From Candidatus Poribacteria bacterium (GTDB taxonomy: Bacteria; Poribacteria; WGA-4E; WGA-3G): a stretch of DNA of 64,000 nt. The stretch's first letter is position 1, and the number at the start of each line of letters is the position of its first letter. Position numbers and translations under genes: made by a program. Shown one piece after another: positions 1-16,340 of the stretch. A model generated the notes under the pieces. That model saw only the letters and a program-made list of their open reading frames with translations. It did not search any database and had not been told where the DNA came from. Location of the stretch: the NCBI GenBank assembly GCA_965205015.1, contig OZ242029.1:2944001-3008000 (forward strand), in the 5' to 3' direction.

Positions 1-630
1 GAAACTGTTGTTCTCGTCTGTTCCGACCACGGGGGCACGCCTAACCAATTCCGTGCTGTAGACATTGAAGAAGTGCTTGAAGAAACTGGGTTCATCGTTA
101 AAGACGAAAACGGGACGATAGACTGGACGCAGACACGGGCAGTCAATGTCGGATTGGTGCATATCTTCATCAACTTAGCCGGACGTGAACCCGATGGAAT
201 CGTGGCACCCGAGGACTATGAAGCGACACAACGTGAACTCATTGCAGCATTGCATACCTATAAGGACGAAAAGACCGGACGATATCCCTTTACGTTAGCA
301 GTAACACGGGCGGATGCTGAAATGTTCAACCTACATGGCGATTTAGTCGGCGATGTTGTCTATGCGCTGCGCCCTGAGTTTGACGGTGCACATGGCAAAC
401 AGTTACCTTCCGTGAGTTTCGGTATCGGCGGGCAGCACTCTACATTTATTCTTTCGGGGGCCGGGGTCCGACAAGGCGTCGCCTTGCAGCGGCAGGTTCG
501 TGTCGTTGATGTTGCACCGACGCTCTGCTATCTACTGGGGCTTCCGATGCCTAACAATGTTGAGGGTGGGGTGGTTTACGAGGCGTTAGAGGATCCCAAT
601 TGGCATTTAACTCAACTTGGGGCTATGTAG
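1..630 (+). CDS. Alkaline phosphatase superfamily / nucleotide pyrophosphatase-phosphodiesterase, 5'-truncated by window edge
   Basis: Frame open from base 1 (ETVVLVCSDHGG...); SDHG motif and C-terminal 'VVDVAPTLCYLLGL' typical of the AlkP superfamily. Confidence 0.75.
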   Translation, partial: ETVVLVCSDHGGTPNQFRAVDIEEVLEETGFIVKDENGTIDWTQTRAVNVGLVHIFINLAGREPDGIVAPEDYEATQRELIAALHTYKDEKTGRYPFTLAVTRADAEMFNLHGDLVGDVVYALRPEFDGAHGKQLPSVSFGIGGQHSTFILSGAGVRQGVALQRQVRVVDVAPTLCYLLGLPMPNNVEGGVVYEALEDPNWHLTQLGAM

Positions 631-10989: not shown

Positions 10990-11778
10990 TTAATGCGTCG
11001 TTTTGATGTTGCCCCAAGTGGTGGCTAATTTCGCGCGAGGATCAACAGACACCCCTAATTCTGATGCCATACCAATCTCGTCGGCACTCAAAGCCCGGTT
11101 CCAAAGAGAAACCTCGTCTATCAAGCCCGCGAAGACATAGTTAAGGCGTTCACAATCCTGCCCGATCCGCCAAGGATCGTCATTAGTTCTCAACACACCC
11201 GGTACTTCGCCTTCCTCGACCGCTTCAGTGTTGATGTAAATTGTGGCTGTTTCGCCATCGTTGGTAAAAGCAACGTGAATCCACTCACCTGTTGGTGGGA
11301 GATCGGTTGCGATGTCGGCTCTACCGCCTTCGGTTTCAAAACGAAGTTTGAAAACACCACTTTCGCTGAACAGACCGTATTGTGTCCTACCTGCACACCC
11401 ACCATGAACGGATTTACCAACAATCTGACGTGTGCCGTTCCAGTGGTCGGCGTTAATCCATGCTGCAAACGTACATTCGTTCACGTTCAAGAGATCCGTG
11501 CTTTCAACGGTGACGAACACATCGCTGCCTTCGCCGCCAAAGCGAAGCGCACCGCCGATTCTTCCAGAGTCCCAATCCGGATTGGAAATTTCACCATCGT
11601 GTCCGTTACCGCTCGCGTCTACAGCGAGTGTGCCTTCCCCTTCATCGTAAGCGTGATGTAGGATAAGCCCATCTGTGAGAGCTGCCGAGACGAAGGGTGT
11701 GAATAACATAGACAGTGCTACTGAGAAACACACAATCCCATAGAATGAGAATCTGCCAGTCAATATTGCGTTCTTCAT
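10990..11778 (-). CDS. Secreted LamG-like jellyroll domain protein (paralogue of 7821-8597)
   Basis: Start MKNAIL at 11778 with GGAGG RBS; shares SDVFVTVEST, RQIVGKSVHGGC and DDPWRIGQDC with the first copy; ends KLATTWGNIK. Confidence 0.9.
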   Translation of the reverse strand: MKNAILTGRFSFYGIVCFSVALSMLFTPFVSAALTDGLILHHAYDEGEGTLAVDASGNGHDGEISNPDWDSGRIGGALRFGGEGSDVFVTVESTDLLNVNECTFAAWINADHWNGTRQIVGKSVHGGCAGRTQYGLFSESGVFKLRFETEGGRADIATDLPPTGEWIHVAFTNDGETATIYINTEAVEEGEVPGVLRTNDDPWRIGQDCERLNYVFAGLIDEVSLWNRALSADEIGMASELGVSVDPRAKLATTWGNIKTTH

Positions 11779-11806
11779 ATTTTGCCTCCTACAAAAAATA
11801 TGAAAT

Positions 11807-11835
11807 ATTATAACAGATTTATGGGATTCTGTCAA
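11807..11835 (-). promoter_or_regulatory. Consensus sigma70 promoter of second LamG gene
   Basis: TTGACA-17 nt-TATAAT on the minus strand. Confidence 0.85.
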
Positions 11836-11862
11836 AGGAAAACAACGCCATCTATTTTTGTT

Positions 11863-11891
11863 TTGACAGCCGAACGACATTCTGCTATAGT
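11863..11891 (+). promoter_or_regulatory. Sigma70 promoter of MATE/rhodanese operon
   Basis: TTGACA-17 nt-TATAGT with extended -10 TG. Confidence 0.75.
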
Positions 11892-12000
11892 GAAACCCAT
11901 AAGCATCACGCCAAAAAGGTACCATCAAACTTCAATTCGGCAAGGAGATTGAGGCGGAAACGGACAGTAACAGCACGAACGAAAAGCCAAGCATCAAGAT

Positions 12001-13374
12001 ATGAGAAAAACACGGGGCGATTTAACCCGAGGGAGTCTCCTAAGACACCTGCTACGGCTGTCAGGACCGATAATACTCAGTTACATGCTGCAAGAGGCAT
12101 TCAACATCGTCGATATGATCTTCGTTGGAAGGCTCGGTGCTGGCGCGATCGCGGCTGTCGGGGTGAGCGGGAACTTAATCCGATTAATCGGCGTTTTCTC
12201 GCTTGGCATTTCAACGGGGACTGGGATTATGGTGGCACAGTATCTCGGCGCGAGGAACCTCGCACAAGCCGAGCACATCGCCCTGCAGTCAATCCTGTTA
12301 GCTGTATTTTTTTCTATCGGTGTAACCCTCGTCGGCTATCCCTTGGCTGAACAAGGGTTACTTGCTGTGAGAATGGTAGACCCAGAGGTGCTAAGGCTCG
12401 GCACGACTTATATGCATATCATTCTCGCCGGTATTAGTACGATGTTTGTGTCGATGACGCTCGGTTCTATCTTCCGTGCGGGGGGCGACACGATCACTCC
12501 GATGGTGGTGCTGATTTTCGCAACGTTGATTAACATTGTGCTTGATCCGTTACTGATCTTTGGTTTATGGGGATTCCCGAAACTCGGCGTTGCAGGTTCG
12601 GCGTATGCGACGCTCATCGGGCGCGGGGCGAGCGTCATTATCCTACTCTATCTCTGTTGGAGTGGACGCGCCCCTGTTTCATTTCGGAGCGTTCGGTATC
12701 AGGTGGATCTGGGGGAAATGCTTGACATTTTAAGGCTTGGCGTTTACAGCTCTATGCAAGGGTTTTGGCGACATATCTCTCGACTCGGTTTCCTGTGGGT
12801 CATCGGTCCCTATGGGAAGACGGTTGTCGCGGCATATACGATCTGTATGCGGCTTCGGATCCTCGTGATGAATCCTGGCTTCGGTATTGCGAATGCGGTT
12901 GTTCCGTTAGTCGGCCAGAATTTGGGTGCGAATCAGATAGGGCGCGCTGAGAGATCGACACGCGTGGCAAACCTTTTAGGGGCTGCGATCATGGCAGTCA
13001 TCGGCGCGGTGTTCTTCCTTTTTCCACAGACGTTCATCCGGATTTTCACACCGGAAACGGATGTTGTTGAGATCGGCATCATTTATCTGCGGTTTCTGTC
13101 CCCGACCTTCGGATTTATCGCCTTTTCGCTCATCTTGGGAAGAGCCCTCAACGGTGCTGGAGACACCTTCTCTCCGATGGTGATTACACTTGCGGCACAG
13201 GTCATCATCGGTTTGGGACTCGTGATTCTGCTTTCACATTTCATCGGACTCAATGGCGTTTGGTCAGGGATCGCCCTCTCGAACGTTGTGCAAGGTATTG
13301 CGATGTGGGTTTGGTACAGTACTGGAAGGTGGAAGTCAATAAAACTTGTTAAAAAGAAACCAAAGGTAGCGTAG
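12001..13374 (+). CDS. MATE family efflux transporter
   Basis: DLTRGS, VDMIFVGRLG, RAGGDTITPM, NIVLDPLLIFG..LGVAGSAYAT; about 12 TMs. Confidence 0.93.
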   Translation: MRKTRGDLTRGSLLRHLLRLSGPIILSYMLQEAFNIVDMIFVGRLGAGAIAAVGVSGNLIRLIGVFSLGISTGTGIMVAQYLGARNLAQAEHIALQSILLAVFFSIGVTLVGYPLAEQGLLAVRMVDPEVLRLGTTYMHIILAGISTMFVSMTLGSIFRAGGDTITPMVVLIFATLINIVLDPLLIFGLWGFPKLGVAGSAYATLIGRGASVIILLYLCWSGRAPVSFRSVRYQVDLGEMLDILRLGVYSSMQGFWRHISRLGFLWVIGPYGKTVVAAYTICMRLRILVMNPGFGIANAVVPLVGQNLGANQIGRAERSTRVANLLGAAIMAVIGAVFFLFPQTFIRIFTPETDVVEIGIIYLRFLSPTFGFIAFSLILGRALNGAGDTFSPMVITLAAQVIIGLGLVILLSHFIGLNGVWSGIALSNVVQGIAMWVWYSTGRWKSIKLVKKKPKVA

Positions 13375-13424
13375 GACACAATATAGCGAACGTGTCCTAC
13401 AAAAAATTCAGGAGGAGTTAGCGA

Positions 13425-14264
13425 ATGATGGAAACCTACAAAGGTTACGTAAATCCACAACTGGTTATCTCTGCTGAGGAATTGAAAGGCACACTCGACG
13501 ACCAAACCTACTGCATCGTCGATACGCGACCGACGTATGAATATATCCGCGGACACATCCCCGGTGCGCTTCATTTAGATCTGTTCGGTTTAAGCCTCAT
13601 TGATACTCGGAAAGAGACATACGATGCCTTTATGTGGATGATAGCATACCTATTTCAGCAACGCGGTCTTGACCCAGGTAAACCGATCGTATGGTATGAG
13701 GACATATCGGGAACGCGCGCCTCGCGGGGGTTTTGGTTTTGCGAGTACTTAGGGCATTCCGAAACCCGTCTATTGGATGGCGGTTTCAAGGCGTGGCTGT
13801 CGGCAGATGGACCTGTGAGTACTGCGGGGGCTGAACCCTCGGAGGTTCCGCCTTTTCCGATAAATGCGCAACACGATATACACATGGATGCCGATGTGAT
13901 CCGGGTCCTGCTAAACCGGGACGACTTTATTCCGCTTGATACGCGCACTGACGATGAACACTATGGTCGGGTTGCCCGCGCAGAGCGTGCGGGTGCTATT
14001 CCGGGTTCTATCCACATTGAATGGCTCAATAATCTTGACGAGGCGGGGGCATTCAAACCTGCTGACGACCTCCGGGAGATGTATGAAGCCGTCGGGATTA
14101 CACCGGAGAAACAGGTCATGTGCTACTGACAGGGGGGCTACCGCTCTTCCCAAGCCTATTTGGCGTTGCGGCTCTTGGGGTATCCAAAAGTGAGCAACTA
14201 CATAGGTTCCTGGAAAGAGTGGGGAGACCGGCTGGATTTGCCGGTCGAAATTCCAGAGGTTTAG
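13425..14264 (+). CDS. Tandem-domain rhodanese / sulfurtransferase, probable selenoprotein (Sec at 14127-14129)
   Basis: GHIPGA, LDGG, GAIPGS motifs; in-frame TGA gives CY-U-QGGYRS at the catalytic position; read-through yields [14 protein letters not shown] (rhodanese C-terminal signature) and TAG at 14262-14264. Confidence 0.88.
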
Positions 14265-14267
14265 CGT

Positions 14268-15113
14268 TTACATTGCTAAATTCCATATCTGCGCGGCAGT
14301 CCCGCCCAAGATACTGTCCCGATCATCAGCTGTGAGGAACGGAAGTCCTTCCCGAATCAGTTGGAGTTCTTGTGCTAAAGAGGGCCAGTTGTGTTTTTGT
14401 CTGTGATGTCCGGGGTAGCCCGTCCCCCATACCGTTCGCTCCGCACTGAAAGCCGACAGCAACTTCTCAATAAACGGATGCACGTCTGTGTAAGGGAAAT
14501 CCTGATGCGAACGTCCGGCGACATCCGAGAGTTTCAAGTAGACGTTATCATAGCGTGCAAGTTCCACGATGGGTTGAAATGCCGCTGCCTCAGCATCTAT
14601 CTGTGGGTAACCCATGTGATCGAGGATAAGTCTCAGATGGGGGTACCGTTGTGCGATAACGGCAACTTGATCCGCGAACTCCGCGCGGAGGTGAAATTGG
14701 ATAACGGCATCCACCGCTGCGATCTCTTCCCACATTGGTCGGTTCTGTCGAGTGAGCAAAATCTTTTCGTCCGGGTAATACATCGGATGGAAGCGGAAAC
14801 CGACTAAACCTCGCTCTTTTATCCAGTAGCGAACCTGCTCGGCGTTGTTCGGATCTTGTGGATCGATCAATCCGTGTCCGATAAACCGATCAGGAAAACG
14901 CGCGACCGAATCCGCGATGTAGCCGTTATCCCAGGTGGACCAACTCGTCTGCACGAGAACTGTCCAGTCTACGCCGTGCGCGTCCATTTCGGCTAAGAGC
15001 TCATCGGCAGTACCGGGTTCATCTGGATAGGAATTCCAAGTCGGTGCAGTGGGGCCGACGGGATACTTCGGGGGATCGATTTCCCAGACATGCACATGGG
15101 TATCTACAATCAT
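14268..15113 (-). CDS. Amidohydrolase_2 family protein
   Basis: DTHVH, GFRFHP, LDHMG, VYLKLS, WGTGYP. Confidence 0.85.
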   Translation of the reverse strand: MIVDTHVHVWEIDPPKYPVGPTAPTWNSYPDEPGTADELLAEMDAHGVDWTVLVQTSWSTWDNGYIADSVARFPDRFIGHGLIDPQDPNNAEQVRYWIKERGLVGFRFHPMYYPDEKILLTRQNRPMWEEIAAVDAVIQFHLRAEFADQVAVIAQRYPHLRLILDHMGYPQIDAEAAAFQPIVELARYDNVYLKLSDVAGRSHQDFPYTDVHPFIEKLLSAFSAERTVWGTGYPGHHRQKHNWPSLAQELQLIREGLPFLTADDRDSILGGTAAQIWNLAM

Positions 15114-15137
15114 CAAATGCTCCTTAACAAATTAGGT

Positions 15138-16340
15138 TTAGAACAGAAACTGAGCATCCACTGTTTCGCCAGCATCTAACGTTGCACCGGATGGAATCGT
15201 GATTAATCCGTTTGCCAAAACGAGCGAATGCAGAATGCCTGAACCCTGGGGTCCTGTTGTTCCGGCAGTGTAATGTCCATTGGATTCTTTGAGAATTGCG
15301 CGCATATAGTTAACGCGTCCGTCTCTGTTGGTAACGGGTTCGGTTAAGGTGGCTTTGAAGGTCGGACGCAATAGATCGGTATGCCCTGCCATTTTGAGGA
15401 GCGCGGGTCGCACAAAAAGTTCAAACACAACGAGCGAAGAAACTGGGTTGCCGGGCAATCCAAAAATAGGTTTTCCGTCCGAGATACCGTAAGCCTGCGG
15501 TTTCCCGGGTTTCATTGCGACGCGCCAGAAGTTAACTTCGCCTAATCTCTCCAATACACTTTTCACATAATCGTGCTCACCCACTGAAACGCCGCCGCTT
15601 GTAATCAAAGCATCCGACTTGGCGAGTGCTGCACGAAAGATGCGCTCTATTTCTGCTTCATCGTCAGGCGCGATCCCCATATCAATCGGGATGCCGCCGG
15701 CTTCCTCGACCTGGGCATAGAGACCATAACGGTTGCTTTCTCGAATTTTTCCCGGTTCAAGCGATTCGCCGAGTAGCAGGAGTTCATCACCCGTTGAGAC
15801 AATCGCAACGGTGGGCTTGCGGTGGACGGTAACCGCTGGGCGATTCAGAGAGGCGAGCATTGAAACTTCCGGCGGACGGAGGTGTTTCCCGTTTCCCATG
15901 ACCTGCTGGCCCACCGCGACACTCTCACCCGTGAAACGAACGTTTCCGGTTTCGTCAATACTCTCAAAAATTTTGACTATATCCCCCTCTCGCTGGGTCA
16001 CCTCTTGCATCACAACCGCGTCGGCACCTGCAGGCATCATAGCACCCGTCATGATACGTGCTGCCTGTCCGGCTGTGACCTGTTTTGTTGGCGCATATCC
16101 CGCGGCAATTGTTTCAACGATTGTGAGAACCGCAGGTTCAGCTTCAGAGATGTTCTGAACATCCGCTGCGCGAACCGCGTACCCATCCATTGCTGAATTG
16201 TCGAACGGTGGAATATTCTCTTCGGCATGCAGTGTCTCTGCGAGAACATACCCCCCACAATTTAGAATTTCCCGCTTTTCCGTGGGTAAAACCGGAATCG
16301 TATTCAGCATCTGCTGGCGGGCTTCTTCAACACTTAGCAT
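15138..16340 (-). CDS. moeA: Molybdopterin molybdenumtransferase
   Basis: PPFDNSAMDGYA, IMTGA, STGDEL, TSGGVSVG, MKPGKP, LPGNPVS. Confidence 0.96.
   Translation of the reverse strand: MLSVEEARQQMLNTIPVLPTEKREILNCGGYVLAETLHAEENIPPFDNSAMDGYAVRAADVQNISEAEPAVLTIVETIAAGYAPTKQVTAGQAARIMTGAMMPAGADAVVMQEVTQREGDIVKIFESIDETGNVRFTGESVAVGQQVMGNGKHLRPPEVSMLASLNRPAVTVHRKPTVAIVSTGDELLLLGESLEPGKIRESNRYGLYAQVEEAGGIPIDMGIAPDDEAEIERIFRAALAKSDALITSGGVSVGEHDYVKSVLERLGEVNFWRVAMKPGKPQAYGISDGKPIFGLPGNPVSSLVVFELFVRPALLKMAGHTDLLRPTFKATLTEPVTNRDGRVNYMRAILKESNGHYTAGTTGPQGSGILHSLVLANGLITIPSGATLDAGETVDAQFLF

Follow-up and report, generated by a model that had tools for sequence, protein, structure and literature searches.

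The subject of this work is a tandem rhodanese gene in a 64,000-nucleotide stretch of DNA from a Candidatus Poribacteria bacterium, the whole of which is referred to below as the window. Our comparative analysis indicated that this gene very probably encodes a hidden selenoprotein, in which UGA 14127-14129 specifies selenocysteine (Sec, U) at the catalytic site of the second rhodanese domain. Under the standard reading, the ATG open reading frame (ORF) 13425..14129 (+) terminates at this TGA, and public gene calls place the end of the rhodanese gene at 14129. When the TGA is read as U, 44 further codons follow until TAG 14262-14264 and the product is 279 amino acids (aa) long (Table 1). The same ORF stop had been pointed out in an initial annotation of the window, and the read-through peptide given there was reproduced letter for letter; its proposal of a hidden selenoprotein is supported by the comparisons presented here. 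Sixteen TGA-ended ORFs of at least 100 aa were inspected in the window, and a convincing read-through extension was found in the rhodanese gene only.

Read-through completes the catalytic domain of a tandem rhodanese

The 279-aa product matched the Pfam family Rhodanese (PF00581) over two stretches, with an E value of 6.5e-37 and a score of 126.5 bits against a cut-off of 22.2. The best solved relative was RhdA from Azotobacter vinelandii (1e0c; E 9.1e-39). Residues 11-276 aligned to this 271-aa protein, and the alignment reached the last residue of its chain, as expected for a tandem rhodanese with two domains on one chain. These two results bear out the earlier suggestion that the second rhodanese domain is completed by read-through. 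The second-best solved relative was a Thermus rhodanese (1uar; E 1.3e-35). Both solved proteins resemble the Poribacteria product in their two-domain fold, in the loop C-Q-x-x-x-R-S and in the C-terminal GSW.EWG signature, but they carry Cys and not Sec, and the loop sequence is QTHHRS in RhdA as opposed to QGGYRS here.

Residue U235 was aligned with Cys230 of RhdA, within the sequence HCQTHHRS. It therefore occupies the position of the catalytic Cys, at the start of the six-residue loop of the C-terminal domain, with Sec predicted to replace Cys. The 44 residues encoded 3' of the UGA comprise the active-site loop (U-QGGYRS) and the C-terminal helices, which make up the last third of the catalytic domain; because both reside there, the read-through part is no appendage. 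A 234-aa product lacking this part would, judging from the alignment, have no active site. Cys233, two residues before U235, is kept in 79 of the 80 distinct Poribacteria copies described below and is missing in a Sec form found in a Candidatus Lambdaproteobacteria metagenome-assembled genome (MAG; locus L123), where the motif reads PFU.

The TGA is conserved and the downstream frame evolves as coding sequence

Among species-representative genomes, 118 relatives were identified, and the best 80, all from Candidatus Poribacteria or unnamed MAGs, were kept for further analysis. TGA was found at the catalytic codon in all 80 loci, never TGC or TGT, and was followed by an open, conserved frame of 44-52 codons; the codon carried by the other 38 of the 118 relatives lies outside this count. 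In one Poribacteria assembly the locus occurs twice, as identical copies on separate contigs (L049 and L050), corresponding either to an assembly duplication or to a real repeat.

A protein search returned 5214 matches. Among the best 120, 106 were gene calls of 212-259 aa that covered 76-84% of the query at 63-96% identity, and the named ones came from Candidatus Poribacteria. The other 14 were full-length proteins of 274-299 aa with 55-61% identity. Cys was present in the U235 column in 9/9 aligned full-length homologues (55-61% identical), in agreement with the earlier placement of the UGA on the catalytic Cys. Similarly, TGC or TGT was present at this codon in 19 genes of the Cys form, which also served as controls for the RNA analyses; 14 of them belong to genomes of other phyla, and metagenomes supplied the remaining 5. 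The gene thus displays the pattern by which selenoproteins are recognised, a TGA conserved in orthologues and a Cys at the same column elsewhere. The Poribacteria copies found at NCBI, of 232-244 aa, are named 'rhodanese-like domain-containing protein', 'sulfurtransferase' or 'hypothetical protein'.

The sequence downstream of the TGA evolves as coding sequence. Relative to the window, the non-synonymous rate (dN) was 0.019 and the synonymous rate (dS) 0.658, giving a ratio of 0.028, and the ratio upstream of the TGA was 0.118. In the downstream frame, 937 codon differences from the window were synonymous and 106 were non-synonymous. TGA is an ordinary stop codon in these organisms, since it is the true terminator of the same rhodanese gene in 7/80 loci and ends 11/43 long ORFs in the window.

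We considered whether TGA 14127-14129 could itself be a true stop, leaving a decayed or truncated rhodanese, two separate ORFs or an assembly error. Gene callers and NCBI do annotate a form of 232-234 aa, as this explanation would have it. However, it is at odds with the presence of TGA in 80/80 independent assemblies with no disruption of the frame over the next 44 codons, and with a downstream dN/dS below that of the rest of the gene. The shortened product would also be devoid of the entire active-site loop, and the downstream part lacks any start codon equipped with its own ribosome-binding site. We assign this explanation practically no probability; the comparison of these sequences excludes a nonsense mutation, a split gene and a sequencing error, including the base-call error that the initial annotation had listed as a possible refutation and that eighty independent assemblies rule out.

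Selenocysteine machinery in the closest genomes

The presence of Sec machinery was examined in the five closest complete genomes, in which the rhodanese is 94-96% identical to that of the window. A tRNA-Sec was found in 5/5 (Rfam RF01852; 78-79 bits in four genomes and 59.5 bits in one, with a cut-off of 47). ARAGORN called tRNA-SeC with anticodon tca in four of the five; the copy that it did not call was the one scoring 59.5 bits in Rfam, in genome G002. The selB gene adjoined tRNA-Sec in all five genomes, selA was present in all five, and selD contained one in-frame TGA in all five, at the expected G-U-x-x-K site. The genes that the initial annotation had suggested searching for were thus all recovered, in relatives of the window. 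In four more-distant Poribacteria and one Lambdaproteobacteria MAG, a Sec-containing selD was found in 5/5 genomes and selB in 4/5; selB was not found in the Lambdaproteobacteria MAG, which has a size of 3 Mb and is possibly incomplete.

Some features of these loci were recorded on their own account. In five Poribacteria genomes, tRNA-Sec and selB share a strand, and ~60-170 nt separate the tRNA gene from the end of selB; in genome G001, for example, tRNA-Sec is at 5259263-5259352 and selB at 5259412-5261307. The selD product is itself a selenoprotein, with one in-frame TGA, in 10/10 genomes examined. The loop of the hairpin following the selD UGA varies by lineage: CGGGU or GGG in most Poribacteria, AGUU in genome G009 and GGUC in the Lambdaproteobacteria MAG.

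Given the Sec machinery in relatives and the Sec/Cys pairing at the catalytic cysteine, selenocysteine is by far the likeliest reading of the UGA. Two points weigh against it. The machinery is present in relatives with a 94-96% identical protein, not within the window: a tRNA scan of the 64 kb returned none, and no selA, selB or selD was found there either. In addition, the case for Sec at residue 235 comes from sequence comparison.

The latter point also leaves room for UGA decoding by a tRNA other than tRNA-Sec, for example a near-cognate one for Trp, Cys or Arg, with downstream RNA structure promoting the read-through, in which case residue 235 would not be Sec. UGA-C is a weak termination signal, and this context is invariant among the copies; a strong structure is also present downstream of the UGA. 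However, both solved rhodaneses and homologues have their catalytic Cys at this position, where Trp or Arg would yield an inactive enzyme. Every complete relative examined has the full Sec system, with a selD that itself contains Sec, and Sec forms of the rhodanese family have already been catalogued. Near-cognate decoding therefore appears very improbable, and we retain selenocysteine as the preferred reading of the UGA, which Sec-tRNA(Sec) delivered by SelB would decode, with translation continuing to TAG 14262-14264.

A new member of a catalogued selenoprotein family

The initial annotation had stated that Sec-containing rhodaneses are known from marine metagenomes, and published tables agree (PMC2398784, PMC1976440, PMC9312934). 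The metagenomes in which this predicted family was described are those of the Sargasso Sea, the Global Ocean Sampling and Olavius symbionts. The table of the Global Ocean Sampling survey includes 'Rhodanase-related sulfurtransferase' (cd01449) and 'Sulfurtransferase COG2897' among selenoprotein families (PMC2398784), and the table of the Olavius symbiont study lists both rhodanese-type families as known (PMC1976440). 'Rhodanase-related sulfurtransferase, COG2897 (SseA)' is listed as a selenoprotein family in a 2022 review (PMC9312934). The relevant passage of a 2026 review distinguishes five rhodanese selenoprotein forms, with a UxxG motif in two of them, forms 2 and 4 (PMC13188914).

Like the published COG2897/SseA family, the Poribacteria protein is a tandem rhodanese whose second domain has Sec in place of the catalytic Cys; the U-x-x-G motif, which reads U-Q-G-G here, and an abundance of Cys homologues are also common to both. 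Architecture and motif place it in the COG2897/UxxG Sec family, the comparison being made with published family features. Since COG2897-type Sec rhodaneses are already listed, we regard the protein as a new, mis-annotated member of a catalogued family. The passages cited here on this family do not mention an occurrence throughout Poribacteria and give no description of its selenocysteine insertion sequence (SECIS). None of the papers that a search found on Poribacteria and selenocysteine concerned this protein, judging by title or abstract.

Other family assignments were tried and rejected. The NCBIfam family NF041203 (LYCAU, form 3, CxU) is also a rhodanese selenoprotein with a Cys two residues before Sec, but it is a single-domain protein of ~126 aa; the Poribacteria product scored 34.8 bits against a cut-off of 115, and the match covered residues 229-275 only. 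Identity with TsoB was rejected with a score of 22.9 against a cut-off of 805. The 3-mercaptopyruvate sulfurtransferase (3-MST) equivalog NF008557 is related and gave 96.5 bits against a cut-off of 250; because this score is below the cut-off, the protein should not be named 3-MST.

What is new here is the phylum-wide, unannotated occurrence of this protein in Poribacteria, together with comparative evidence for a non-canonical and possibly discontinuous SECIS. The enzyme appears to be recoded in the best 80 of 118 relatives, yet gene callers cut it at the UGA in the records seen. Because the rhodanese is cut in this way, the selenium dependence of a major phylum of sponge symbionts is likely under-reported; the same Poribacteria genomes also carry a Sec-containing selD.

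A conserved RNA structure downstream of the UGA

RNA positions are numbered with the U of the UGA (window 14127) as +1. We scanned synonymous variation codon by codon over the 80 distinct copies, expressing entropy relative to expectation. Two minima were found, 0.32 at codons 233-248 and 0.22 at codons 262-276, for a gene-wide value of 0.69. Both minima can be explained by the folding of +1..+135 into two elements, an irregular stem-loop closed by a helix that we call P1 and a G+C-rich hairpin that we call HP2 (Table 1). Ensemble folding of 78 sequences gave mean pair probabilities of ~0.8 for P1 and 0.98 for HP2, which begins three nucleotides after P1, and RNAalifold also recovered both elements.

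P1 was completely paired in 77/77 distinct sequences. Its single variable pair, 18-93, was C-G in 62 sequences, U-A in 13 and U-G in 2, and was never broken. Double-sided changes were found at pair 36-75 in 9 sequences and at HP2 pair 102-118 in 4. Over the whole structure, 94.6% of cells were paired as opposed to 31-48% with slid partners, and the covariation score was reached by 0/500 shuffles, with the caveat that the structure was derived from one of the same sequences and that the sequences are related. Synonymous sites in the HP2 loop are fixed: Leu270 is always encoded by CTG, and Asp271 is encoded by GAT in all copies but one. In the window, the fold of these 135 nt had a z score of -2.10 (7/200 shuffles as good), and HP2 alone, with a free energy of -13.1 kcal/mol, had a z score of -4.74 (0/200 shuffles as good).

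Known RNA families did not account for the structure: Rfam gave no match in the window at gathering thresholds and none in 14050-14330 at E values up to 10. An all-against-all listing of alignment column pairs was too permissive and yielded nothing usable. A role of HP2 as a terminator was considered and rejected, since neither strand gave a terminator-like call at 14226-14246. Nor is HP2 linked to the convergent amidohydrolase gene: that gene was found within the fetched flank in 43/80 loci, and all Poribacteria copies have HP2 with its pairs complete or almost complete.

The structure is complete in selenocysteine forms and incomplete in cysteine forms

We compared P1 and HP2 between Sec and Cys forms. 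In the 19 Cys controls, P1 was always incomplete, with 4-7 of its 8 pairs (mean 5.1), and so was HP2, with 3-6 of its 7 pairs (mean 4.6). In Sec forms without an indel, P1 had 8/8 pairs in 80/80 and HP2 had 7/7 pairs in 79/80. Two further copies had a one-codon deletion; P1 was fully paired in the alignment, and HP2 was full in L078 and had 5/7 pairs in L076. In the Latescibacterota Cys form L113, sister to the Poribacteria clade with 98/97 support and the nearest of the Cys forms to it, P1 had 6/8 pairs and HP2 had 4/7.

Two TGA forms from outside this clade gave different results. The Lambdaproteobacteria form L123 (L123:2182-2310) has 44% protein identity and was not resolved as sister to the Poribacteria. 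It nevertheless displayed P1 with 8/8 pairs and HP2 with 7/7 pairs, additional compensatory changes and an identical loop, with no Cys at position -2. The third, more distant form was found on a metagenome contig (L198:900-950) and has a divergent C-terminus, with only 4/8 pairs in P1 and 1/7 in HP2. L198 carries a canonical local hairpin of 8 bp at +13..31 with the loop GGC; given this textbook hairpin, the rhodanese family can also use a canonical SECIS.

P1 and HP2 as a candidate discontinuous SECIS

According to the model set out in the 2026 review, a bacterial SECIS (bSECIS) has a loop of 3-9 nt, a stem of 4-16 bp and a minimum free energy (MFE) of at most -7.5; its first or second loop nucleotide is a G, and G or U usually comes next (PMC13188914). 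The UGA-to-loop distance is 16-37 nt (PMC13188914, with the same range in PMC10778597). Not every bacterial selenoprotein gene conforms to this model, the 2026 review noting a subset that fails it (PMC13188914). In the Poribacteria rhodanese, no conserved hairpin satisfied all these features within +16..+37. Like a consensus bSECIS of the E. coli fdhF type, HP2 has a 7-nt loop, a 7-bp stem, a G at loop position 2 followed by another G, and an MFE of -13.1. The HP2 loop opens with N-G-G, as does the local post-UGA hairpin of selD (CGGGU) in the same genomes.

We therefore propose that the cis signal is a natural discontinuous SECIS made of P1 and HP2 that is also kept in L123, a proposal whose chances we put at even or slightly above. 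P1, after a spacer of 11 nt, would loop out 82 nt (+15..+96) and thereby bring HP2 to an effective distance of 21 nt (11 + 10) from the UGA. HP2 would be the SelB-binding hairpin and the P1-closed stem-loop would act as a bridge. Because P1 starts after the 11-nt spacer, it could stay formed while the A site holds the UGA. Su, Li & Gladyshev (2005) reportedly described engineered E. coli constructs in which a SECIS in the 3' untranslated region acted from a distance when RNA pairing brought it near the UGA. Those constructs were artificial; the arrangement proposed here would be natural, with the hairpin beside the bridging helix and not atop it, inside the coding region.

Several observations weigh against a discontinuous SECIS. 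Unlike a consensus bSECIS, HP2 has its loop 103 nt from the UGA and not 16-37 nt, and it reaches this range (21 nt) only when the 82-nt P1-closed stem-loop is discounted. The sections on bacterial SECIS elements in two reviews contain no natural bacterial precedent for a distant SECIS (PMC10778597, PMC13188914). The covariation at 18-93 may reflect only about two events. The inner part of the stem-loop is moderately conserved, several of its pairs being broken in 20-30 of 77 sequences, and it keeps 15/23 pairs in L123. A hairpin at +5..11/+15..21, recovered by RNAalifold on a 70-nt alignment and mutually exclusive with P1, is 97.4% paired, with no covariation. The contrast between Sec and Cys forms is not phylogenetically matched, because the Cys controls come from other phyla and have a higher G+C content. 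Finally, P1 and HP2 are partially complementary in Cys forms as well, owing to the conserved peptide motifs YRS/KEW and DR/PV. These motifs encode complementary RNA, and the gene may have been pre-adapted for a switch from Cys to Sec.

A search for the exact top of HP2 in three Poribacteria genomes is a further point on this side, as it found no other HP2-like hairpin. The search was narrow, being based on an 11-nt motif comprising the exact loop and two closing pairs; it returned 35 matches, 30 loci were examined, and stems of at least 7 bp were found at the 3 rhodanese genes only. It neither supports nor excludes the discontinuous model and gave no sign of a shared SECIS motif. In G001, the 11-nt motif occurred 17 times, as compared with once for the reversed control, and the other copies formed no hairpins; the excess probably comes from frequent Leu-Asp-Leu codons.

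The UGA could also encode Sec with the working SECIS being a local element directly downstream, P1 and HP2 then serving in mRNA stability, in ribosome pausing that favours SelB over RF2, or as a protein-binding site. We hold this to be possible but rather doubtful. Two candidates for a local SECIS were considered, the +5..21 hairpin and a stem at 14149-14179 with an inner C29-C30/G36-G37 hairpin. A location directly 3' of the UGA is where both reviews, in their passages on the subject, put the bacterial SECIS (PMC10778597, PMC13188914), and local hairpins exist in selD of the same genomes and in the L198 rhodanese. The +5..21 hairpin has the high pairing noted above. However, its loop is 8 nt from the UGA, inside the ribosome footprint, and this loop is of 3 nt with no conserved G.

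The second candidate includes the stem that the initial annotation had put forward as a possible SECIS, 14149-14156 with 14170-14179 (+23..30 with +44..53). The complementarity is indeed present in the window, and the stem at 14149-14179 shows some covariation at 28-48. As a SECIS, however, this stem did not hold up: 84.1% of cells were paired, 5/8 pairs were broken in 12-26 of 77 sequences, and the loop is either of 13 nt, outside the bSECIS model, or UAUUU without a G. Local folding gave no support either, the 80-nt fold of 14121-14200 having a z score of -0.33 and the first 51 nt after the UGA a z score of +0.68, with 153/200 shuffles as good. A local element would also leave unexplained the strongest synonymous constraint, at codons 262-276, and the covariation at 18-93.

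If the proposed discontinuous SECIS is correct, bacterial SelB would be able to use a hairpin that is distant from the UGA in the linear sequence. SECIS finders that scan just 16-37 nt downstream would miss such genes, and the arrangement would represent a natural design for Sec insertion without recoding the residues beside the UGA.

Genomic context, transcription and possible function

The features described here and the neighbouring genes are collected in Table 1.

Table 1 Positions in the window of the rhodanese gene, its RNA elements and the neighbouring genes.
Feature	Position	Strand	Remarks
Tandem rhodanese gene, full selenoprotein reading	13425..14264	+	279 codons, RhdA/COG2897-like; stop TAG 14262-14264
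Shine-Dalgarno-like AGGAGG	13410..13415	+	9 nt 5' of ATG 13425; read in the sequence
UGA codon (U235)	14127..14129	+	Catalytic position, loop U-Q-G-G-Y-R-S; next base C (UGA-C) in all copies
Cys233 codon	14121..14123	+	Yields the C-x-U motif (CYU)
Irregular stem-loop +15..+96	14141..14222	+	Starts 11 nt after the UGA; closed by helix P1; inner part less conserved
Helix P1 (+15..22 with +89..96)	14141-14148 pairs with 14215-14222	+	8 bp
Hairpin HP2 (+100..+120)	14226..14246	+	7-bp G+C-rich stem, 7-nt loop UGGAUYU; candidate SelB-binding part
MATE-family exporter gene (PF01554)	12001..13374	+	50-nt gap upstream of the rhodanese gene; neighbour in 75/80 loci
Amidohydro_2 gene	14268..15116	-	Convergent; within the fetched flank in 43/80 loci
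moeA (molybdopterin molybdenumtransferase)	15138..16340	-	Within the fetched flank in 65/80 loci

By analogy with known rhodaneses, the sulfur or selenium under transfer would be bound at U235, as a persulfide or a selenosulfide. Cys233 could possibly be its resolving partner and form a selenenylsulfide with U235. A rhodanese with Sec at the residue that carries the persulfide, and with a Cys nearby in a C-x-U motif, offers a testable case for the replacement of Cys by Sec in sulfur and selenium trafficking. Links to molybdenum-cofactor sulfuration or to selenium delivery are speculation.

No terminator-like site was found between the MATE and rhodanese genes, and one RNA-library contig covers both, making their co-transcription plausible. 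The position of the TGA is spanned by RNA-library contigs belonging to 3 studies; they come from relatives that are 90-93% alike, and DNA carry-over is possible. The RNA runs were covered as assembled contigs and in small shares (0.11-0.15), and 40 of 327 differences were inspected.

Promoter-like counts in the region overall were not above those of shuffles. At 11807-11891 of the window, near-perfect sigma-70-like promoters were found back to back, matching at 12/12 positions on the minus strand and at 11/12 on the plus strand. They sit between a Laminin_G_3 gene (10993-11928, -) and the MATE gene (12001, +).

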